Shown: positions 42,287-53,448 of the stretch, one piece after another
Layout of the letters: the number at the start of each line of letters is the position of its first letter
How positions within the stretch are numbered: the first letter of the stretch is position 1
From: Escherichia phage Ge15
Length of the DNA: 64,000 nt
Sequence record: PP359696.1
Direction: 5' to 3' (one strand)
Position numbers and translations under genes: made by a program
Notes under the pieces: generated by a model
What the model saw: the letters and a program-made list of their open reading frames with translations, nothing else
The model's database searches: none
Told to the model about the DNA's origin: nothing

Positions 42287-42737
42287 GTTAGAGATAAGAA
42301 GCAATTTTAGATGGCCATCATGTGCATTAAGTAATTTCGCCCAATGGCCTTTTGTTATGGATGGTATCCAATTTGGAGGTCTCGAAGGATTCCTCCAAGG
42401 ATGCAAGGTGAAAAATGTTGAACAACAGCGTCGTATATTTGGGTTATCCGGGCTTGCCGCCCAACAAGCTGGAAGGTCTTATGCTAGAGCTCAGGACCGT
42501 GGGACCCTCTTCTGGCTTGGAGTTCCGTTTTCAAGATACTCCCCAGCGTGGAAAGAATTATACACAAATGCATATTTTGAAGCAGCGTTCCAAAACAAGG
42601 GCTTTCGCGATGCATTACAAGCCTCGAAAGGAAAAGTTTTGAAGCACAGCATGGCTAGTGGTCTAACAAAAGATGATACAATACTAACCGAAGCTGAATT
42701 TATTGATGTGTTAAACCTATTAAGAGACTCTCTATGA
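42273..42737 (+). CDS. YbiA/NADAR (DUF1768)-like protein, 30.3-like
   Basis: motif SNFAQWPFVMDGIQFGGLEGFLQGCKV parallels YbiA FSNFAAWP..DG...SEHYFQAQK; locally higher GC. Confidence 0.6.
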   Translation: MKMSELEIRSNFRWPSCALSNFAQWPFVMDGIQFGGLEGFLQGCKVKNVEQQRRIFGLSGLAAQQAGRSYARAQDRGTLFWLGVPFSRYSPAWKELYTNAYFEAAFQNKGFRDALQASKGKVLKHSMASGLTKDDTILTEAEFIDVLNLLRDSL

Positions 42738-43597
42738 AGCCTACTATTTTGACTGATATTGATGGAGTATGTTTAAGCTGGCAATCAGGCCTTCCTTATT
42801 TTGCTCAGAAATATAATCTTCCGTTAGAACATATTTTAAAAATGATCCAAGATGAGAAATTTATTTCTCCGGGTAAACTCTTTAATTGTGATGAAGAACT
42901 TGGTGTCAAGTTAATTGAAAAATATAATCGATCAGATTTTATTCGTTATTTGTCTCCATATAAAGATGCACTGTGTGTAATTAACAAATTAAAAGAAGAT
43001 TATAATTTTGTAGCTGTTACAGCATTGGGTGATTCTATTGACGCTCTGTTGAATCGTCAATTTAATTTGAATGCTCTTTTTCCTGGTGCCTTCTCAGAAG
43101 TAATGATGTGTGGTCATGATTCTTCAAAAGAAGAGTTATTCAAAAAGGCAAAAGAGAAATATAACGTAATTTGTTATATTGACGATCTCGCTCACCATTG
43201 CGATCATGCGAGTGAAATATTAAATGTTCCTGTTTATTGGATGGCGCGAGGAGAGCGTGACAATATTCCAAAAACCGCTCAGCGAGTTTATACATGGAAT
43301 GATGTAGAAAATAAGCTTTTTTCGCCGAAGGAAAATAAAGAAAGTTTTGATAATGAAAAAGCTATAAAAGATGTAATTGAGAAGATGGTTAAAAACGATT
43401 CTTTTCGTTGGAACACTACCTGGAGAACTCCTGGATTTAATCCGTATAATCCATATTATACACATCCATATAATCCATATTATACACACCCGTATCATAT
43501 GAATCCATTCCATACGTGGAGTTATACTAAGCCTGGTGATGCAGGGTATTTTAATAGATTTACTAGTGGTGATAATATTTTCCAAGGAGCATTCTAA
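42734..43597 (+). CDS. HAD-like hydrolase with C-terminal Tyr/Pro/His-rich repeats, 30.2-like
   Basis: N-terminal ILTDIDGV (DxDG HAD motif I); C-terminal NPYNPYYTHPYNPYYTHPYHMNPFH repeats. Confidence 0.6.
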   Translation: MKPTILTDIDGVCLSWQSGLPYFAQKYNLPLEHILKMIQDEKFISPGKLFNCDEELGVKLIEKYNRSDFIRYLSPYKDALCVINKLKEDYNFVAVTALGDSIDALLNRQFNLNALFPGAFSEVMMCGHDSSKEELFKKAKEKYNVICYIDDLAHHCDHASEILNVPVYWMARGERDNIPKTAQRVYTWNDVENKLFSPKENKESFDNEKAIKDVIEKMVKNDSFRWNTTWRTPGFNPYNPYYTHPYNPYYTHPYHMNPFHTWSYTKPGDAGYFNRFTSGDNIFQGAF

Positions 43598-43644
43598 TGT
43601 TTGTCGTTCACACTATTTATGAAAATGAAGGTAATACTACACGT
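43232..43644 (+). repeat. 413-bp direct repeat, copy 1 (3' end of 30.2-like gene plus first 48 bp of 30.1-like gene)
   Basis: identical to 45617-46029 by direct comparison. Confidence 0.9.
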
Positions 43645-44017
43645 CCGTATAATCCATATTATACACATCCATATAATCCATAATTTAATCCGTATAATCC
43701 ATATTATACACATCCTATAAAAAATTAAAATTAACCACAATAAGCGAATTGATTAAAAATATTTATTGTTCATTATCCGTCAGTAATCATCCCGGGCAAA
43801 TGCCCGGGAATTATTCTAGGATTATTTTCTTTGTTAAAAAAGACAAACGGTATTAACTGATGTATTTACTATTTACCGCTCCCTGCAGGGGGGATTATCA
43901 GAATCCGCGGTTATTCATTATTTATATACATTCAATAAAAAAGTAACCTCATAAAAAATCCTGTACTCACAGGGTGATGCGGGATAACTGACGTAAGGAG
44001 TGCTGCAGGGATTTGAT
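43645..44017. other. left arm of inserted block: scrambled phage micro-repeats then unique AT-rich DNA with GC palindromes
   Basis: 43645-43680 repeats 43442-43477, 43684-43715 repeats 43436-43467; then cccgggcaaatgcccggg, ctgcagggggg, ccgcgg. Confidence 0.6.
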
Positions 44018-44108
44018 TAGACTGGCCCCCTGAATCTCCAGACAACCAATATCACTTAAATAAGTGATAGTCTTAATACTAGTTTTTAGACTAGTCATTG
44101 GAGAACAG

Positions 44109-44474
44109 ATGATTGATGTCTTAGGGCCGGAGAAACGCAGACGGCGTACCACACAGGAAAAGATCGCAATTGTTCAGCAGAGCTTTGAACCGGGGATGAC
44201 GGTCTCCCTCGTTGCCCGGCAACATGGTGTAGCAGCCAGCCAGTTATTTCTCTGGCGTAAGCAATACCAGGAAGGAAGTCTTACTGCTGTCGCCGCCGGA
44301 GAACAGGTTGTTCCTGCCTCTGAACTTGCTGCCGCCATGAAGCAGATTAAAGAACTCCAGCGCCTGCTCGGCAAGAAAACGATGGAAAATGAACTCCTCA
44401 AAGAAGCCGTTGAATATGGACGGGCAAAAAAGTGGATAGCGCACGCGCCCTTATTGCCCGGGGATGGGGAGTAA
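44109..44474 (+). CDS. insC: IS2 InsC (orfA, HTH regulator/transposase N-terminus)
   Basis: 121-aa [29 protein letters not shown]... with A6G slippery site at 44426-44432. Confidence 0.85.
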
Positions 44475-45143
44475 GCTTAGTCAGCCGTTGTCTCCGGGTG
44501 TGCCAAACGTGTTTACCGGATCATGCGCCAGAATGCGCTGTTGCTTGAGCGAAAACCTGCTGTACCGCCATCGAAACGGGCACATACAGGCAGAGTGGCC
44601 GTGAAAGAAAGCAATCAGCGATGGTGCTCTGACGGGTTCGAGTTCTGCTGTGATAACGGAGAGAGACTGCGTGTCACGTTCGCGCTGGACTGCTGTGATC
44701 GTGAGGCACTGCACTGGGCGGTCACTACCGGCGGCTTCAACAGTGAAACAGTACAGGACGTCATGCTGGGAGCGGTGGAACGCCGCTTCGGCAACGATCT
44801 TCCGTCGTCTCCAGTGGAGTGGCTGACGGATAATGGTTCATGCTACCGGGCTAATGAAACACGCCAGTTCGCCCGGATGTTGGGACTTGAACCGAAGAAC
44901 ACGGCGGTGCGGAGTCCGGAGAGTAACGGAATAGCAGAGAGCTTCGTGAAAACGATAAAGCGTGACTACATCAGTATCATGCCCAAACCAGACGGGTTAA
45001 CGGCAGCAAAGAACCTTGCAGAGGCGTTCGAGCATTATAACGAATGGCATCCGCATAGTGCGCTGGGTTATCGCTCGCCACGGGAATATCTGCGGCAGCG
45101 GGCTTGTAATGGGTTAAGTGATAACAGATGTCTGGAAATATAG
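44432..45143 (+). pseudogene. insD: IS2 insD (orfB transposase catalytic part), frame disrupted by internal deletion
   Basis: orfB reads [23 protein letters not shown] then shifts at about 44501; the downstream DDE region (44523-45143) is in another frame. Confidence 0.8.
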
Positions 45144-45367
45144 GGGCAAATCCAATAAACAATTGGAATTTACTTCCATTGATCTGTTTACTCAGTGGTT
45201 GTCACTTTTATCGAGAAAGGTTTGCAGAACGCGGGTTTTTTTATAAGGTTCCTGATGTACTGAGGGATTATTTATCAGCTATACCGCTGGAAATAAATGA
45301 AAAGGCACGATACAAACCCGGCATCGCTAACTATCACAATATCATCACATGTGGTTTTTCAACGTTG

Positions 45368-45616
45368 TTACCCTATATAAGGCACGGCACCATGACAAAT
45401 ACGGGTATTCGCGCCGATAACAACTTCACCTGCAGTTTCATCAATAATTACCTGGTCTGCAATCTGAATATTTTTCTCTTTAACATTAAGCTTCAGATAG
45501 TTTTTCAGTTCCTGTGACAGAAGGTTGGGAATAAGCGGTTGACGCTTCCACCAGTGCGGAATAGCGGGTGGGTTTGTCGCGCTGAGGTTCGCGTCCAGTA
45601 AAAAAGGCAATAAGTC
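45368..45616 (-). pseudogene. 3' fragment of a non-phage gene (C-terminal about 80 codons ending ...GANTRICHGAVPYIG)
   Basis: coding-like - strand frame ending at a stop at 45368-45370, truncated at the junction with phage repeat copy 2; higher GC than the phage. Confidence 0.5.
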
Positions 45617-46029
45617 GTTTATTGGATGGCGCGAGGAGAGCGTGACAATATTCCAAAAACCGCTCAGCGAGTTTATACATGGAATGATGTAGAAAATAAG
45701 CTTTTTTCGCCGAAGGAAAATAAAGAAAGTTTTGATAATGAAAAAGCTATAAAAGATGTAATTGAGAAGATGGTTAAAAACGATTCTTTTCGTTGGAACA
45801 CTACCTGGAGAACTCCTGGATTTAATCCGTATAATCCATATTATACACATCCATATAATCCATATTATACACACCCGTATCATATGAATCCATTCCATAC
45901 GTGGAGTTATACTAAGCCTGGTGATGCAGGGTATTTTAATAGATTTACTAGTGGTGATAATATTTTCCAAGGAGCATTCTAATGTTTGTCGTTCACACTA
46001 TTTATGAAAATGAAGGTAATACTACACGT
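45617..46029 (+). repeat. 413-bp direct repeat, copy 2
   Basis: identical to 43232-43644. Confidence 0.9.
45626..45982 (+). pseudogene. truncated duplicate of the 30.2-like gene 3' end (118 codons from internal Met)
   Basis: translation identical to the C-terminal 118 aa of the 42734-43597 product; upstream context is foreign. Confidence 0.6.
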
Positions 46030-46251
46030 GATTACGGTCACGTAAATCAATTTTTTAGATGCAATCCAGAATTCCGAGCTCAAAAAGACGAACGAATTTT
46101 TAAAAAATGTGTAGAGCAAGGTTTCATTTACGTCAAGCACTGGATGCAAGGAAATAAAGTTAGAACTACATATCATAAGTCTTTGCCTGAGCTTAATGAT
46201 GAATTGATTTATAATAGAGCTGTAAACCAAACTTTGAAGGATGAGCAATGA
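45982..46251 (+). CDS. hypothetical protein (30.1 position)
   Basis: 89-aa ORF; start overlaps the stop of the 30.2-like ORF (TAATG). Confidence 0.55.
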   Translation: MFVVHTIYENEGNTTRDYGHVNQFFRCNPEFRAQKDERIFKKCVEQGFIYVKHWMQGNKVRTTYHKSLPELNDELIYNRAVNQTLKDEQ

Positions 46252-47711
46252 TTCTTAAAATTCTGAATGAAATAGCATCTATTGGATCAACTAAACAGAA
46301 GCAAGCAATTCTTGAAAAGAATAAAGATAATGAATTGCTTAAACGGGTATATCGTCTGACTTATTCTCGTGGGTTACAGTATTATATCAAGAAATGGCCT
46401 AAACCTGGTATTGCTACCCAGAGTTTTGGAATGCTGACTATTACCGATATGCTTGACTTCATTGAATTCACGTTAGCTACTCGGAAATTGACCGGAAATG
46501 CTGCAATTGAGGAATTGACTGGATATATCACCGATGGTAAAAAGGATGATGTTGAAGTTTTGCGTCGAGTGATGATGCGAGACCTTGAATGCGGTGCTTC
46601 AGTATCTATTGCAAACAAAGTTTGGCCAGGTTTAATTCCTGAACAACCTCAAATGCTGGCAAGTTCTTATGATGAAAAGGGCATTAGTAAGAATATCAAA
46701 TTTCCAGCCTTTGCACAGTTAAAAGCAGATGGAGCCCGGTGTTTTGCTGAAGTTAGAGGCGATGAATTAGATGATGTTCGTCTTTTATCACGAGCTGGTA
46801 ATGAATATCTAGGATTAGATCTTCTTAAGGAAGAATTAATCAAAATGACTGCTGAAGCCCGCCAGATTCATCCAGAAGGTGTGTTAATTGATGGCGAATT
46901 GGTATACCATGAGCAAGTTAAAAAGGAACCAGAAGGCCTAGATTTTCTTTTTGATGCTTATCCTGAAATTAGTAAAGCTAAAGAATTCGCCGAAGTAGCG
47001 GAATCTCGTACTGCTTCTAATGGAATCGCCAATAAATCCTTAAAAGGAACCATTTCCGAAAAAGAAGCCAAATGCATGAAGTTTCAGGTCTGGGATTATG
47101 TCCCGTTGGTAGAAATATACGGTCTTCCGGCGTTTCGTTTAAAATATGATGTACGTTTTTCTAAACTAGAACAAATGACATCAGGATATGATAAAGTAAT
47201 TTTAATTGAAAACCAGGTAGTAAATAACCTAGATGAAGCTAAGGTAATTTATAAAAAATATATTGACCAAGGTCTTGAAGGTATTATTCTCAAAAATACC
47301 GATGGATTGTGGGAAAATGCTCGTTCAAAAAATCTCTATAAATTTAAAGAAGTAATTGATGTTGATTTAAAAATTGTAGGAATTTATCCTCACCGTAAAG
47401 ACCCTACTAAAGCAGGTGGATTTATTCTTGAATCAGAGTGTGGAAAAATTAAAGTAAATGCTGGTTCAGGCTTAAAAGATAAAGCCGGTGTAAAATCACA
47501 TGAACTTGACCGTACTCGCATTATGGAAAACCAAAATTATTATATTGGAAAAATTCTAGAGTGCGAATGCAACGGTTGGCTAAAATCTGATGGCCGCACT
47601 GATTACGTAAAATTATTTCTTCCAATTGCGATTCGTTTACGTGAAGATAAAACTAAAGCTAATACATTCGAGGATGTATTTGGTGATTTTCATGAGGTAA
47701 CTGGTCTATGA
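46248..47711 (+). CDS. 30: ATP-dependent DNA ligase
   Basis: 487-aa ORF near-identical to T4 DNA ligase from MILKILNEIASIGSTKQKQAIL...; adenylation lysine motif region present. Confidence 0.95.
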   Translation: MILKILNEIASIGSTKQKQAILEKNKDNELLKRVYRLTYSRGLQYYIKKWPKPGIATQSFGMLTITDMLDFIEFTLATRKLTGNAAIEELTGYITDGKKDDVEVLRRVMMRDLECGASVSIANKVWPGLIPEQPQMLASSYDEKGISKNIKFPAFAQLKADGARCFAEVRGDELDDVRLLSRAGNEYLGLDLLKEELIKMTAEARQIHPEGVLIDGELVYHEQVKKEPEGLDFLFDAYPEISKAKEFAEVAESRTASNGIANKSLKGTISEKEAKCMKFQVWDYVPLVEIYGLPAFRLKYDVRFSKLEQMTSGYDKVILIENQVVNNLDEAKVIYKKYIDQGLEGIILKNTDGLWENARSKNLYKFKEVIDVDLKIVGIYPHRKDPTKAGGFILESECGKIKVNAGSGLKDKAGVKSHELDRTRIMENQNYYIGKILECECNGWLKSDGRTDYVKLFLPIAIRLREDKTKANTFEDVFGDFHEVTGL

Positions 47712-47896
47712 AAGCTTACTTAGAAACAATTGTCGTTGCTCAAAAAGAAGGTGGAGATGTTTCTACTTCTGTATCACAAATTATGATTGAATTTATAGAT
47801 GCATATGCTTATAATAAATTCGCAGAAACATTTGATGCCTATGAAAAAGGTCCAAAGTTTGAAATATATCGTACTCTCTTACCAATAGATTATTAA
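47708..47896 (+). CDS. hypothetical protein
   Basis: 62-aa ORF coupled to ligase stop. Confidence 0.45.
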   Translation: MKAYLETIVVAQKEGGDVSTSVSQIMIEFIDAYAYNKFAETFDAYEKGPKFEIYRTLLPIDY

Positions 47897-47913
47897 AGGC
47901 CTTCGGGCCTTTA
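47896..47913 (+). terminator. hairpin aaaggccttcgggccttt
   Basis: GC stem with ttcg loop. Confidence 0.5.
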
Positions 47914-47945
47914 ATTTTATAAATAGAATAAACACTAGAGAGGAT

Positions 47946-50042
47946 ATGATGGAACTCATTACAGAATTATTTGACGAAGATACTACTCTTCCGATTACAA
48001 ACTTAAATCCAAAGAAGAAAATACCACAAATTTTTTCAGTTCATGTTGATGACGCAATTGAACAACCAGGCTTTCGTTTATGTACCTATACATCTGGAGG
48101 TGATACTAATCGCGATTTAAAGATGGGCGATAAAATGATGCATATTGTTCCTTTTACATTAACTGCTAAAGGTTCAATTGCTAAATTAAAAGGTCTCGGT
48201 CCAAGCCCAATTAATTACATCAATTCAGTTTTTACTGTTGCGATGCAGACGATGCGTCAGTATAAAATTGATGCCTGTATGCTTCGTATTCTTAAGTCTA
48301 AAACTGCTGGTCAAGCTCGTCAAATTCAACTTATTGCTGATAGACTTATCCGCAGTCGTTCAGGTGGCAGATACGTCCTTCTTAAGGAACTCTGGGATTA
48401 CGATAAAAAGTATGCATATATTCTTATACATCGCAAAAATGTATCACTAGAAGACATTCCAGGAGTTCCAGAAATTAGCACCGAGCTCTTTACTAAAGTT
48501 GAATCAAAGGTTGGTGATGTTTATATCAATAAAGATACTGGAGCTCAAGTAACTAAAAATGAGGCAATTGCTGCATCTATTGCGCAAGAAAACGATAAAC
48601 GTTCTGACCAAGCTGTAATCGTTAAAGTTAAAATTTCCCGTAGAGCAATTGCACAAAGTCAATCATTAGAATCTTCTAGATTTGAAAGTGAATTATTCCA
48701 AAAGTATGAATCTACCGCAGCTAATTTCAATAAACCTGCTACGGCTCCTTTAATTCCCGAAGCAGAAGAAATGAAGCTTGGAATTAATTCATTAGCTTCT
48801 AAAACTAAAGCAGCAAAAATTATTGCTGAAGGAACTGCAGATGAACTTCATTATGACTATAAATTCTTTTCAAAAAGTGAGGTTAATGAAGTTTCTGAAA
48901 AAATTAAAGATGTAATTCTTAATGCGATTAAAAATGAACCAACTACTTCAATAAAATGTTTAGAGAAATACGCAGCAGCTGTTAATCAATTATTTGAAGA
49001 ATATAAAGATAATTGGCTTGATAAACATAATAAAACCCGTAAAGGACAGCCAGATGAAGTCTGGGAAGAAATGACTAAAAATTCCTGGAACGCAGCAAAA
49101 ACTAAATTCCTCAAAAGAATGATTTACAGCTTTTCTGGAATTGGTGCAGGTCCAATGATTGATATTACTATTGCCCGTGATGGTTCTAAATATACTCCAT
49201 CACAAAAGCGTGGCATTAGAGAGTATTGCGGTTCAGGATATACTGACATCAATAATCTTCTTTTAGGACGCTACAATCCAGAACGATATGATGTAATGAG
49301 TGAAAAAGAAATTGAATCTGCTATAAATAACTTAGATTCAGCTTTTGAAAATGGTGACCGTATACCAGAAGGCATTACAGTTTATCGTGCTCAAAGCATG
49401 ACTGCTCCTATATACGAAGCACTAGTTAAAAATAAAGTGTTCTATTTCAGAAATTTTGTATCTACTTCTTTAACTCCTATCATTTTTGGACGTTTTGGAA
49501 TTACGCATACTGGTATTGGTCTTTTAGAACCAGAAGCTCGTAATGAATTGACAGTTGATAAAAATGAAGAAGGAATAACTATTAATCCAAGCGAAATAAG
49601 AGCGTATAAAGAAAATCCTGAATACGTTAAAGTTCAAATAGGATGGGCAATTGATGGAGCTCATAAAGTTAATGTTGTATATCCAGGAAGTCTCGGAATA
49701 GCAACAGAAGCTGAAGTTATTCTACCACGAGGATTGATGGTCAAAGTTAATAAAATAACTGATGCTTCTAATAATGACGGAACAACATCTAATAATACAA
49801 AACTCATTCAAGCTGAAGTTATGACTACGGAAGAACTCACCGAATCAGTCATTTATGACGGTGACCGTCTAATGGAAACTGGTGAAGTAGTTGCAATGAC
49901 AGGTGATATTGAAATAGAAGACAGAGTTGACTTTGCATCATTTGTTTCATCAAATGTTAAACAAAAAGTAGAATCATCTCTTGGAATTATTGCGTCTTGC
50001 ATAGATATTACAAACATGCCTTACAAGTTCGTTCAAGGATAA
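47946..50042 (+). CDS. alt: Alt-family ADP-ribosyltransferase (capsid-packaged, injected)
   Basis: 698-aa ORF; N-terminal MELITELFDE; position between ligase and baseplate genes as T4 alt. Confidence 0.75.
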   Translation: MMELITELFDEDTTLPITNLNPKKKIPQIFSVHVDDAIEQPGFRLCTYTSGGDTNRDLKMGDKMMHIVPFTLTAKGSIAKLKGLGPSPINYINSVFTVAMQTMRQYKIDACMLRILKSKTAGQARQIQLIADRLIRSRSGGRYVLLKELWDYDKKYAYILIHRKNVSLEDIPGVPEISTELFTKVESKVGDVYINKDTGAQVTKNEAIAASIAQENDKRSDQAVIVKVKISRRAIAQSQSLESSRFESELFQKYESTAANFNKPATAPLIPEAEEMKLGINSLASKTKAAKIIAEGTADELHYDYKFFSKSEVNEVSEKIKDVILNAIKNEPTTSIKCLEKYAAAVNQLFEEYKDNWLDKHNKTRKGQPDEVWEEMTKNSWNAAKTKFLKRMIYSFSGIGAGPMIDITIARDGSKYTPSQKRGIREYCGSGYTDINNLLLGRYNPERYDVMSEKEIESAINNLDSAFENGDRIPEGITVYRAQSMTAPIYEALVKNKVFYFRNFVSTSLTPIIFGRFGITHTGIGLLEPEARNELTVDKNEEGITINPSEIRAYKENPEYVKVQIGWAIDGAHKVNVVYPGSLGIATEAEVILPRGLMVKVNKITDASNNDGTTSNNTKLIQAEVMTTEELTESVIYDGDRLMETGEVVAMTGDIEIEDRVDFASFVSSNVKQKVESSLGIIASCIDITNMPYKFVQG

Positions 50043-50045
50043 ATC

Positions 50046-52103
50046 ATGGAACTTATTACAGAATTATTTGACGGCGCTTCGGCGCCGGTTGTTAACTTAA
50101 ATCCTAAGCATAAAATACCTCAAATTTTTGCTATTCAAACCGGTGAAGAAAGCGTGCTTCCTGGATTTAGATTTTGTACATACACCTCTGGCGGTGATAC
50201 AAATAAAAACGTTAAGCCAGGCGATAAAATGATGCATATCGTAATGATAGGTGTTAATGAGAAACTATCATTAGTTAAACTTAAAAACTTGGGTGGAAAT
50301 CCAATTGGTGTCATTAATGCGGTTTTTGATACTGCTCTTCAAACAATGAAACAGTATAAAATTGACGCATGCCTATTCCGCGTACTAAAAAGTAAAACAA
50401 ATGGTGCAGCTCGTCAAATGCAAGTTATTGCTGACCGTTTAGTACGTACTAAAGGAGCAGGTCGATATGTTCTTTTAAAGGAAATCTGGGATTACGATAA
50501 AAAGTATGCATATATTATGGTTTACCGTAAAAATGCCAATTTAGAAGACATTCCAGGTGTACCTCCTATTTCAACTGAGTTATTCACAAAAGTTGAATCA
50601 AAGGTTGGTGATGTTTATGTAGATGTTAAAACAGGTAATGCTGTTCCTAAAGCTGTTGCTGTTGCTGCTTCTATTGCTTTAGAAAATGATAAGCGCACGG
50701 ATCAAGCTGTTATTCAGAAAACTAAAATTAGTCGTCGATTGGCAGCACAAGCTCAATATTCTACTGTCGATGCTTCGCTTCAGGGTGATAGCTTCGCTGC
50801 CAAGAAATATCAAGAGTTTGAATCTAAAGTTCCGGTATATAAAGCAGAAGGACCAATGAACTCTGGTGTTATTCAGATTGGTTCAAACTTCAGCAAAGGA
50901 GCTATCGGTGGTATGAGAAGTGCTTCTCGTTTTAAATCTAACGATTATGAACTAGAAAGCTTCCGAAATCATATTGCATTGGCTCATGCACGTTTACGTG
51001 ATCCGTCTATCAGACTGCAGAGCGATATAACACATCAAGGTTCTCAAGAATATTTAAAGAATAAAGAATTTTTTGATTATAAAACCGATAAAATTTTGAG
51101 CGATCTCGCTGACATTAATATTTCTAATAGCTTTGATGTTATTAAGAAAATTATCAATGATTTAGTTAAAGGTTCTAAAGCCACGCCAGACGAAAAGGTA
51201 GCTATTATTCAATTTGTTATGAATGGCATTTATAAATTGATTAATGAATCTGCTGCTCAGGCATATGAATACGCAAGCACCGAAGTAACTCCAAAAGGAT
51301 TAACTCAGGCTGAGTCTGATGTAATAGAAGATTATTGTGCAGATTCATATGTTGAAATGAACTCGTTCCTCTTGGGTAAACCAGATTCTACCCGTGAAGA
51401 ATACATGGAACGAGCTATTAAACACATCGAGACAATGGATTCTGCATTCGCTAAAGGTTCAGTTCTTCCTCCAGGAACTACGCTTTATCGTGGACAAGAA
51501 GTTACTTTTAAAACTTTACGTCATAATATTGAAAATAAAATGTTCTATTTCAAGAACTTCGTATCCACATCGCTTAAACCAAATATCTTCGGTGAGCATG
51601 GTAAAAACTATATGGCTCTAGATGATTCCGGCGCAGTATTTTCTGGCGAAGGAGAAGGTTCAGTTGATGCTGAAGATTTAATGCATATGGGTAGTCACTC
51701 TGCTTATGCGAATGAAGACGCTGAAACTAGCGTAGGTATGGTAATTAAAGGGGCTGAGCGAATCAAAGTTATCGTTCCAGGTCATTTATCAGGATTTCCA
51801 TCAGAAGCTGAAGTTATTTTACCGCGTGGAATTTTGCTGAAGATTAATAAAGTGAGCACGTACATGATGAAAGAAACTGCTTATAATAAGTATCTAATCG
51901 AAGGCACAATCGTTCCTCCTTCTGAACAATTAGAAGAATCGGTATATGATGGCGATCATCTAATGGAAACTGGTGAAGTTCGTCCAATGGCTGGGTTTAA
52001 TCAATTCCTTGTAGAAGAATCAAAAGAAGAGGAAAACGAAGTTTCTCAAATCTTGGCTTCTTTGGTTAACATCAACGGAATGTCTAAAAAGTTCAAGATG
52101 TAG
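50046..52103 (+). CDS. Alt-like paralogue
   Basis: 685-aa ORF; same N-terminus MELITELFD and collinear similarity to the upstream alt product. Confidence 0.7.
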   Translation: MELITELFDGASAPVVNLNPKHKIPQIFAIQTGEESVLPGFRFCTYTSGGDTNKNVKPGDKMMHIVMIGVNEKLSLVKLKNLGGNPIGVINAVFDTALQTMKQYKIDACLFRVLKSKTNGAARQMQVIADRLVRTKGAGRYVLLKEIWDYDKKYAYIMVYRKNANLEDIPGVPPISTELFTKVESKVGDVYVDVKTGNAVPKAVAVAASIALENDKRTDQAVIQKTKISRRLAAQAQYSTVDASLQGDSFAAKKYQEFESKVPVYKAEGPMNSGVIQIGSNFSKGAIGGMRSASRFKSNDYELESFRNHIALAHARLRDPSIRLQSDITHQGSQEYLKNKEFFDYKTDKILSDLADINISNSFDVIKKIINDLVKGSKATPDEKVAIIQFVMNGIYKLINESAAQAYEYASTEVTPKGLTQAESDVIEDYCADSYVEMNSFLLGKPDSTREEYMERAIKHIETMDSAFAKGSVLPPGTTLYRGQEVTFKTLRHNIENKMFYFKNFVSTSLKPNIFGEHGKNYMALDDSGAVFSGEGEGSVDAEDLMHMGSHSAYANEDAETSVGMVIKGAERIKVIVPGHLSGFPSEAEVILPRGILLKINKVSTYMMKETAYNKYLIEGTIVPPSEQLEESVYDGDHLMETGEVRPMAGFNQFLVEESKEEENEVSQILASLVNINGMSKKFKM

Positions 52104-52132
52104 TTTACAAGTCCCTCGTGTTGTGTTACAAT
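52104..52132 (+). promoter_or_regulatory. T4-type early promoter (second copy of the 33700 cassette)
   Basis: gtttac 52104-52109, tacaat 52127-52132. Confidence 0.5.
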
Positions 52133-52163
52133 AGTTTTACTGACATAACATGAGGAACACAAA

Positions 52164-52454
52164 ATGAAATCTTCTTTACGCTTTTTAGGTCAAGAACTTG
52201 TAGTTGAAGGCGTTATTCCTGCTGATAACGCTTTTAATGAAGCAGTTTATGATGAATTTATCAAAATTTTTGGAACAGATAAAAAGTTCGGAATTTTTCC
52301 TTCTGAAAATTTTTTAAAGCCAGAACAGACTGAAAGCATTTTCCAGGGTGTAGTAACAGGTAAATTTGAGTCAGAAGCTCCGGTAAAAATTGAAGTTTAT
52401 ATTGAAGACAGTTTAGTTGCTTCAGTTGCTGCTTTTATTTCATTCCGTAAATAA
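52164..52454 (+). CDS. hypothetical protein
   Basis: 96-aa ORF with RBS gagg. Confidence 0.5.
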   Translation: MKSSLRFLGQELVVEGVIPADNAFNEAVYDEFIKIFGTDKKFGIFPSENFLKPEQTESIFQGVVTGKFESEAPVKIEVYIEDSLVASVAAFISFRK

Positions 52455-52460
52455 AAATAT

Positions 52461-52478
52461 GGGGACCGTTCGGTCCCC
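52461..52478. terminator. bidirectional hairpin terminator between convergent genes
   Basis: ggggaccgttcggtcccc. Confidence 0.55.
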
Positions 52479-52482
52479 ATTG

Positions 52483-53448
52483 TTATATTGCTCCTAATAT
52501 TTTACTTTGCGAGTTGACAATTCCCGTCATAGTATTAATGTTTGAAATGCTTCCAGCAGTTCCTCCTAATCTACTAAGTCGTGAAAGCGAATTAGATAAT
52601 CCAGTAACACCTCCACTATTTCCGAGAACGCTTTGAATGCCATTTATAGCAGCAGATTCAAGCCACTCAAGCGCAGCTTGTCTATCAACCGACCCAGCCT
52701 GCATGACTCTATACGCAAAAGTAACATCAAATGTAGTTATTTGGTTATCTCCATCATATGATAACTCAGGAGCGCTCACTGACACTGGAATGCATCCGGT
52801 GAACATCACTGCAGTATGAGGTAATCCATTACGAGCATGAAGATTAACCTGAATATCTGCCTCGACATCTTGTGGCAAAGCACGCAGTCCAGTTACTGGG
52901 TCTTGAACAGCGTTAACCCAGTCTTGCATTGCACGATAGTTACAAGCTTCTGAATCCATTCTAAATGAAATAACCAAAGGGTCTAATTCTCTCCCAGTTA
53001 TACGAATATTAGGAGAGTTATAGTTCCAGTCAGTTTCATAGGATAATCTATTCTCTGGCATTTTTACAGAATATATCATCAATCCAGATGAATTATACGC
53101 CATATTAAAGAAGTCAATTAAATATGTACCAACTGTAAATGAGCCCAATAAACTTTGAACTGTACGTTGACTCATGGCACCAATAAGATATTTACTAACC
53201 CCTGATTTTCTTATCAGTTTTTGTGTGCCAGCAGTAATTAGCGTGGTAATTCCCTGATTAATATCGCCTTGAGTCAATCCTAACCAGTCTGAATTTAGAC
53301 CCAAGTTATTATAAGAAAAGTTGCTAATTGAACTTATCAACGAAGAGCTTTTAGTTGATGGAGTTGTCGCAAAAACGCAGCTAAACATATTATTACGTTG
53401 AAAATCTGCGTTTATTGCTTGATTATTAAATTCCTCTAAAGAATACAT
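52483..53448 (-). CDS. 54: baseplate tail tube initiator gp54
   Basis: 321-aa ORF; synteny 29-48-54. Confidence 0.8.
   Translation of the reverse strand: MYSLEEFNNQAINADFQRNNMFSCVFATTPSTKSSSLISSISNFSYNNLGLNSDWLGLTQGDINQGITTLITAGTQKLIRKSGVSKYLIGAMSQRTVQSLLGSFTVGTYLIDFFNMAYNSSGLMIYSVKMPENRLSYETDWNYNSPNIRITGRELDPLVISFRMDSEACNYRAMQDWVNAVQDPVTGLRALPQDVEADIQVNLHARNGLPHTAVMFTGCIPVSVSAPELSYDGDNQITTFDVTFAYRVMQAGSVDRQAALEWLESAAINGIQSVLGNSGGVTGLSNSLSRLSRLGGTAGSISNINTMTGIVNSQSKILGAI

Follow-up and report, generated by a model that had tools for sequence, protein, structure and literature searches.

Does a T4-like phage that carries two alt genes side by side keep a spare copy of one enzyme, or does it deliver two different enzymes to its host? 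This question is raised by Escherichia phage Ge15 (sequence record PP359696.1), from which we analysed a stretch of 64,000 nucleotides (nt), here called the window, to which all positions refer. Between positions 47,946 and 52,103 the window holds two long genes of the Alt family of ADP-ribosyltransferases (ARTs), whose products we call Alt1 and Alt2. In phage T4, about 40 copies of Alt are carried in each head and injected with the DNA; the enzyme ADP-ribosylates RNA polymerase alpha and others, and interferes with MazF (PMC9026906, PMC5512222, PMC9503650). The comparative analysis described below makes it probable, in our judgement, that the locus is a late operon of two paralogous, head-delivered ARTs with different targets.

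Alt1 and Alt2 belong to the Alt family

A sequence-only reading of this DNA had described the two open reading frames as adjacent and collinear paralogues, and pairwise alignment bore this out: both lie on the plus strand, 3 nt apart, and their products share 41% identity across the full length (BLASTP, expectation value (E) 2e-156), a likeness that by this value chance cannot account for. Every block of sequence that had been quoted as common to the two (MELITELFD, GDKMMHIV and others) was found in both proteins. In windows of 40 residues, the identity was 55-82% over the N-terminal 220 residues, 7-20% in the centre (alignment columns about 241 to 420), up to 47% in the ART domain and 28-40% in the C-terminal tail. 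The centre is in fact the most divergent part, as had been proposed.

The Pfam model PF03496 (ADP-ribosyltransferase exoenzyme), whose curated cut-off is 23.4 bits, matched Alt1 with 129 bits (E 1.8e-37) and Alt2 with 72.8 bits (E 3.1e-20). PHROG 802, described as 'Alt-like RNA polymerase ADP-ribosyltransferase', matched both proteins end to end (E 9e-273 for Alt1 and 1.7e-255 for Alt2), and the cluster representatives P0001 and P0121, 98-99% identical to Alt1 and Alt2, have precomputed assignments to PF26846 (Tevenvirinae_ADPRT) together with PF03496. No NCBIfam model matched Alt1 or Alt2. These assignments agree with the R-S-E motifs and with the fold search presented below, and the family originally proposed for the pair stands. 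Alt1 and Alt2, both of about 76-78 kDa before processing, are ADP-ribosyltransferase paralogues within the T4 Alt family, and both genes are intact.

Domain organisation, catalytic motifs and fold

Both proteins are composed of an N-terminal alpha/beta domain of about 230 residues, a central region and an ART domain of the C3/VIP2 type, with a predicted propeptide at each end (Table 1). Between Alt1 and Alt2 the identity is 67% in the N-domain, 9% in the central region, 34% in the ART domain and 43% in the C-terminal propeptide.

The catalytic arginine, the S-T-S motif and the E-x-E motif are invariant in a family alignment of 22 sequences that includes several paralogue types. A lack of catalytic residues in the second open reading frame had been considered as a possibility; they are intact in Alt2. 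In this class of ARTs (the C2/C3/Iota family) the E-x-E motif goes with arginine targets, unlike Q-x-E, and from their motifs Alt1 and Alt2 are predicted to be arginine-specific.

The AlphaFold2 model of Alt2 (mean predicted local distance difference test score, pLDDT, 75.7; predicted template modelling score 0.71) shows an alpha/beta N-domain at residues of about 1 to 240, an all-helical domain at about 250 to 415 and an ART domain at about 420 to 625; residues 630 to 662 are disordered and are followed by a short terminal helix. The N-domain modelled separately reached a mean pLDDT of 82.7. When the Alt2 model was compared with the PDB by Foldseek, the matches were Vis, Certhrax, CDTa, C3bot, VIP2 and Iota Ia, with E from 2e-7 to about 1e-5; the probability was 1.00 for Vis, C3, CDTa, VIP2 and Iota Ia, and the target-normalised template modelling score was up to 0.68. 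By sequence, Alt1 matched CdtA/Iota Ia with the YR and E-x-E motifs aligned. The ART assignment of Alt1 is thus suggested by PF03496 and by this match, and that of Alt2 also by its modelled fold. The structure search retrieved no solved Alt protein; by sequence, only distant toxin ARTs matched Alt1 and none matched Alt2. These C3-like and binary-toxin ARTs have the catalytic fold and the R, S-T-S and E-x-E motifs in common with the Alt pair, and differ from it in that they share only 15-20% identity with it, are secreted, have their own translocation components and are without the parts that target a protein to the phage head.

A search of 1.84 billion representatives retrieved the PF26846-type N-domain in only 69 clusters; the proteins were about 600-710 amino acids (aa) long, and the domain stood at the N-terminus in every case. 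Among the 10 most atypical hits, 8 contained PF03496 and 2 had no Pfam match. The idea that this domain is a general delivery module, also present on other types of effector, was rejected as far as it was tested.

Predicted prohead-protease sites at both ends

Mass spectrometry has mapped two cuts that the prohead protease gp21 makes in T4 Alt, one after ITE-6 and one after LTE-619; the mature protein that results has 68.2 kDa (PMC5694885; PMC9026906). The shared leader on which the sequence-only reading had placed weight is present, since both Alt1 and Alt2 begin with MELITE and therefore end this leader in the site published for T4 Alt. At the other end, the LTE motif of Alt1 and the LEE motif of Alt2 (Table 1) align with LTE617-619 of T4 Alt, and the 22-sequence alignment, with its several paralogue types, shows no variation at the P1 glutamates (E6 and E631). 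The numbering of the sites could be checked, because the mass calculated for mature T4 Alt reproduces the published 68.2 kDa. After trimming at both ends, the predicted sizes are 70.1 kDa for Alt1 and 69.1 kDa for Alt2. In the Alt2 model, the disordered segment falls exactly around the C-terminal protease site.

The C-terminal block YDGD(R/H)LMETGEV, which had been listed among the conserved parts of the two enzymes, is indeed conserved. Its place is another matter: it lies just after the second published site (LTE-619 in T4) and for this reason belongs to the C-terminal propeptide, which T4 removes, and is no part of the mature protein. The most likely reading of this arrangement would be that Alt1 and Alt2 are both packaged and are both processed at the two ends.

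Organisation of the alt operon

The first open reading frame (47946..50042, 698 aa) opens with ATG ATG, so that translation could start one codon earlier, at 47946. A Shine-Dalgarno sequence, GAGG, at 47940-47943 is spaced for the second ATG, at 47949, which corresponds to the MELITE start annotated in T4. On account of this spacing we prefer the start at 47949, which gives Alt1 a length of 697 aa. The Shine-Dalgarno sequence of Alt2 falls within the final codons of Alt1, and a match to the T4 late-promoter consensus TATAAATA precedes Alt1 (Table 1). Translation of Alt2 thus appears to be coupled to that of Alt1, and the two genes form one operon, which is probably transcribed late. A separate promoter for Alt2 was considered and rejected: the 3-nt gap between the genes contains no TATAAATA, and a copy inside Alt1 is uninformative. 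This second copy of TATAAATA, at 49322-49329 on the plus strand, within the Alt1 coding sequence and about 720 nt upstream of Alt2, is probably meaningless.

A terminator-like stem-loop upstream of the promoter match may separate the transcript of gene 30 and alt.1 from the alt operon. A 'putative transcriptional terminator' is annotated at the matching position in phage OE5505; a simple terminator scan did not flag the stem-loop at 47895-47912. On the other side, the operon ends before alt.-3, because this gene has its own early-type promoter. The gene order around the pair is that of T4, with gene 30 and alt.1 on one side and alt.-3 and gene 54 on the other.

Table 1. Coordinates of the alt locus of phage Ge15 and of the features flanking it
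Feature	Position	Strand	Remarks
DNA ligase gp30	46248..47711		upstream neighbour
alt.1	47708..47896		upstream neighbour
Stem-loop, terminator-like	47895..47912	+	AAAGGCC-TTCG-GGCCTTT, then AATTTT; directly 3' of the alt.1 stop
T4 late-promoter consensus TATAAATA	47918..47925	+	motif match; followed by the Alt1 start codon after about 24 nt
Alt1 coding sequence	47949..50042	+	697 aa plus stop; 'Bas37_0033-type' Alt allele
Alt1 N-terminal propeptide MELITE	47949..47966	+	ends in ITE, gp21 cleavage motif
Alt1 N-terminal alpha/beta domain (PF26846)	47967..48653	+	99% identical to T4 Alt
Alt1 variable central region	48654..49193	+	aligns with the Alt2 region modelled as all-helical
Alt1 ART domain	49194..49835	+	
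Alt1 catalytic R480	49386-49388		
Alt1 catalytic S505-T-S507	49461-49469		
Alt1 catalytic E587-A-E589	49707-49715		
Alt1 LTE630-632 motif, then acidic C-terminal propeptide	49836..50039	+	propeptide contains YDGDRLMETGEV; 65 aa, isoelectric point 4.2
Shine-Dalgarno AAGGA for Alt2	50035..50039	+	within the final Alt1 codons
Alt2 coding sequence	50046..52103	+	685 aa plus stop; ATG 3 nt past the Alt1 stop
Alt2 N-terminal propeptide MELITE	50046..50063	+	ITE motif; E6 invariant in 22 aligned family members
Alt2 N-terminal alpha/beta domain (PF26846)	50064..50747	+	modelled separately
Segment between two CTAAAAAGT copies	50385..52092	+	9-bp repeats at 50385-50393 and 52084-52092; T4 keeps one
Alt2 central all-helical domain	50748..51281	+	specific to the Alt2/altb lineage
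Alt2 ART domain	51282..51929	+	
Alt2 catalytic R482	51489-51491		
Alt2 catalytic S507-T-S509	51564-51572		
Alt2 catalytic E587-A-E589	51804-51812		
Alt2 LEE629-631 motif, then acidic C-terminal propeptide	51930..52100	+	propeptide contains YDGDHLMETGEV; 54 aa, isoelectric point 4.6
Early-type sigma-70 promoter for alt.-3	52104..52132	+	TTTACA, 17-nt spacer with extended TG, TACAAT; adjoins the Alt2 stop
alt.-3	52164..52454	+	96 aa, DUF5498; neighbour gene, not an Alt paralogue
Bidirectional terminator hairpin	52459..52480	.	between alt.-3 and gene 54

Modular evolution and selection

T4 Alt (gpAlt, NP_049811) shares with the Ge15 pair the locus, the architecture, the leader and both gp21 sites; T4 has one functional alt gene and the window has two. 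Outside its N-domain (Table 1), Alt1 is 33% identical to T4 Alt in the helical region, 66% in the ART domain and 94% in the C-terminal propeptide. At the DNA level, the identity to T4 is 95.6% up to position 48755, is not detectable between 48756 and 49184, ranges from 47 to 82% between 49185 and about 49900, and rises to 96-98% over 49919-50393. Alt1 is, by these comparisons, a mosaic, and its effector part (helical region plus ART domain) is a different allele from that of T4 Alt. With 33% and 66% identity, it fails as an orthologue proper of the T4 Alt effector, the target of which is Arg265 of RNA polymerase alpha, and so does Alt2 with 15% and 35%. In the phage collection, effector modules of the window type (at least 90% identity) occur in 318 records and those of the T4 type in 172. 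Both types are found combined with Alt2; for example, phage OE5505 carries a T4-type Alt together with Alt2.

Tandem Alt paralogues are also found at the same locus in JS98 (alta and altb) and in Dhakavirus E33, where there are three (L005, 2293-8405; 631, 693 and 707 aa), here called E33_a, E33_b and E33_c in order; altb and E33_c belong to the Alt2 lineage. The Dhakavirus genes differ from the Ge15 pair in their leader, M(T)EQLNE or MENLNE in place of MELITE, and E33 in its third copy. In E33_a, a regular-expression scan found no L-x-E-S..YDGD site and segment BLAST no match to the C-terminal propeptide. Paralogues share 67% N-domain identity in Tequatrovirus and 61-68% in Dhakavirus; across the two genera the figure is 42-46%. 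Alt2 compared with altb and E33_c shows instead 45-46% identity in the helical domain, 58% in the ART domain and 60-66% in the C-terminal propeptide. The N-domains thus group by genome, and the helical, ART and C-terminal propeptide modules group by lineage. The simplest reading would be that the duplication into a and b copies is older than the split between Tequatrovirus and Dhakavirus, that the N-domain has been kept alike within each genome by gene conversion or by co-adaptation to the phage's own head core, and that the effector modules follow lineages of their own and have been exchanged by recombination. The middle gene E33_b, whose central region is 65% identical to that of Alt1, matches Alt1 with 94% identity in the ART domain and with only 46% in the N-domain, a disparity that suggests transfer of the effector module between genera.

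Further combinations were observed in Logan assemblies. Proteins P0125 and P0127 are 100% identical to the N-terminus of Alt1 up to about residue 180 or 210 and then continue as Alt2 (about 93-100% per 30-residue window). The contig of P0125 (SRR24155011; L010, 4001-6055) carries no other alt gene, and P0125 lies there between alt.1 and alt.-3. Such fusions may derive either from recombination between the tandem N-domains or from assembly collapse. Another contig (SRR23924977; L011, 1904-6085) carries two alt genes in tandem. The second of them, P0129 (694 aa), combines an N-domain of the Alt2 type (92% identical) with a divergent effector (helical domain 58%, ART domain 72%) and probably represents one more effector allele for this position.

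The ratio of non-synonymous to synonymous substitution rates (dN/dS) was determined by the pairwise Nei-Gojobori method for the window and five phages, with dS values up to 0.28. It was 0.02-0.08 for Alt1 and 0.02-0.09 for Alt2, most Alt2 pairs being at 0.02-0.05, with up to 105 synonymous as compared to 18 non-synonymous differences. Both genes are under strong purifying selection and are functional genes.

Distribution of the pair and loss of Alt2 in T4

When the region 47700-52500 was compared by megablast with 50,697 phage records, 540 matched and 350 contained at least 80% of it; the best matches listed had 97.4-98.7% DNA identity over 4.8 kb. In many matching records the genes bear the annotation 'Alt-like ... 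(x2)', alt_1/alt_2, or alt plus alt.-2. A tblastn search with Alt2 residues 131-685 gave 401 records at 95% identity or more, and between 60% and 95% only one, at 80-90%; over these residues Alt2 is 100% identical to the PinkRuby protein. Escherichia phage KarlGJung (Bas37, MZ501089) has the same two genes in the same order, bas37_0033 ('Alt') and bas37_0032 ('Alt2'), with no difference of substance, and Bas37_0033 sits in a region with 97.9% DNA identity to the window. The matching pair is also present in RB51, PinkRuby, ime09, HY01, CrRp10 and others, RB51 being annotated with two 'alt' genes. Paralogues of alt were described as early as 2006 by Nolan et al., including a full-length duplication in 44RR (PMC1524935).

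The sequence-only reading had stated that a pair standard at this locus in all close relatives would be conserved and not novel. In about three quarters of them it is standard, and it is already annotated, so that in substance any novelty falls away. The Alt/Alt2 pair is a known, standard locus of Tequatrovirus phages; Ge15 is an ordinary member, and Alt2 is a property of hundreds of known genomes and no discovery of the present analysis.

The exception is T4. There, alt is followed by two small open reading frames, alt.-1 and alt.-2, the products of which match Alt2 from residue 1 to about residue 117. Alignment of T4 to the window showed that positions 50394-52083 are missing from T4. The deletion comprises 1,699 bp between 9-bp direct repeats, with the junction inside CTAAAAAGT, and a frameshift further upstream splits the Alt2 remnant in two. 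T4 has lost full-length Alt2 because this deletion between direct repeats left only alt.-1 and alt.-2. The T4 record describes them as an 'old duplication of the first part of gene alt', and this has the direction of the event wrong, since they are a remnant and not a partial duplication.

Proposed function of the two proteins and alternatives

By analogy with T4 Alt, Alt1 and Alt2 would both be built into the prohead core through their conserved parts, and the prohead protease would trim both ends of each protein, to about 70 and 69 kDa. Both would then stay in the head and be injected with the DNA. In the first seconds of infection, each would use NAD+ to mono-ADP-ribosylate arginines of host proteins, and the unrelated helical domains, together with ART domains that are only 34% identical, would direct the two enzymes to different targets.

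A difference in specificity is plausible because much closer Alt alleles already differ in function. According to a 2025 preprint, T4 Alt evades the Mokosh type I defence, and T4 Alt, not Bas37_0033, restores plaquing against it; fitness on a clinical isolate depends in its turn on Bas37_0033, which is of the same type as Alt1 of the window (10.1101/2025.11.20.689424).

Several points weigh against this proposal. The L/I-x-E cleavage motifs are short and are found elsewhere in both proteins, so that their presence alone is no proof of cleavage, and a literature search found no virion proteome that covers Alt2. The late-promoter consensus matched 12 times in the window as compared to 9.3 expected by chance; the match at 47918 is credible because it lies directly ahead of the operon. 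Target recognition by the helical domain is put forward on the strength of its variability. A literature search found no paper on the function of Alt2 or on Alt2 as a phage ADP-ribosyltransferase. Finally, alt is non-essential in T4 (PMC9026906) and T4 grows well without Alt2; for this reason, the contribution of Alt2 may be small or specific to certain hosts.

The same capacity of T4 to manage without Alt2 would fit a redundant back-up or dosage copy, packaged like Alt1 and acting on the same targets, RNA polymerase alpha and others. The architecture, the E-x-E type of motif, the leader and the operon are common to the two proteins, and T4 Alt itself modifies many proteins (PMC5512222). Redundancy of this kind is nonetheless unlikely. 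The two proteins have diverged widely in the helical and ART domains, yet each lineage is 95-100% conserved within Tequatrovirus and recognisable across genera; both genes are under strong purifying selection, and the two Alt alleles that differ in function are separated by far less divergence than Alt1 and Alt2.

Another possibility is that Alt2 is made late, remains unpackaged and acts in the producing cell, in the manner of ModA and ModB, or that it acts on RNA or NAD-capped RNA. ModA and ModB of T4 are small, of about 200 residues, and are not known to have the PF26846 domain or the propeptides. They resemble the Alt pair in their tandem layout, being adjacent R-S-E ART paralogues that have diverged in substrate (PMC10468400), and differ from it in that they are made after infection and are not head-delivered (PMC5512222). 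A role of this kind would accord with the outcome of the literature search, in which virion data on Alt2 were looked for and not found, and, as to a non-protein substrate, with the finding that T4 ModB attaches NAD-capped RNA and not plain ADP-ribose (PMC10468400). We judge it quite improbable, in view of what Alt2 has kept: the MELITE leader, the similar N-domain, the aligned L-x-E motif, the acidic C-terminal propeptide and invariant P1 glutamates. Moreover, its apparent translational coupling to Alt1 places it behind the late-promoter consensus, and in the representative library its N-domain is almost only fused to ART domains of the Alt family.

That Alt2 is a decaying, functionless duplicate on its way to the T4 state, as the frameshifted and truncated remnants of T4 and its closest kin and the single-gene fusions of the Alt1 N-domain to Alt2 in two Logan assemblies might suggest, is hardly credible given the intact 685-aa open reading frame, the 401 records with orthologues at 95% identity or more, the intact catalytic residues and the retention of the orthologous lineage in Dhakavirus, and as a pseudogene it is effectively refuted by the dN/dS values.

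Two head-delivered ARTs with different targets, made from one late operon, are therefore the reading that we retain as probable.

Neighbouring genes and an insert in gene 30.2

Downstream of alt.-3, gp54, gp48 and gp29 are encoded on the minus strand. T4 can evade the CmdTAC defence when its Alt.-3 is extended at the C-terminus (PMC11618068); in Ge15, alt.-3 has the wild-type length of 96 aa.

We also observed that gene 30.2 contains an insert of 1,972 bp (43645-45616) that is absent from T4 and PinkRuby. When the region 42500-46300 was used as a query, 659 phage records matched and none covered more than about half of it. The insert is flanked by a perfect 413-bp direct repeat of phage DNA (43232-43644, identical to 45617-46029) and includes three pieces that are 100% identical to DNA of E. 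coli K-12, namely IS2, with an internal gap of 193 bp, and the flanking yaiX/yaiP region. The stretches 43645-44017 and 45157-45383 had no match, and the fraction of G and C in the region is up to 0.47. This arrangement resembles the single-crossover integration of a circle with phage homology, or an assembly chimera.

Significance of a second Alt lineage

What is known of Alt comes essentially from T4, which has one gene and a minority allele. Of the T4-like coliphages sequenced, roughly three quarters seem to inject a pair of distinct ADP-ribosyltransferases; in some phages the number may be three. Since Alt alleles differ in the defence that they neutralise (10.1101/2025.11.20.689424), the Alt2 lineage is a reasonable candidate for an additional activity in host takeover or counter-defence. 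We consider it evenly balanced whether Alt2 is a further effector delivered from the head, whose host target, perhaps with an anti-defence function, differs from that of Alt, at a locus that works as a cassette system. If this were true, a genome-specific scaffold made of the N-domain and the two propeptides would carry interchangeable helical-plus-ART modules, swapped between phages and even between genera, and the sole reason why fifty years of work on T4 missed Alt2 would be the deletion of the gene in the laboratory lineage.

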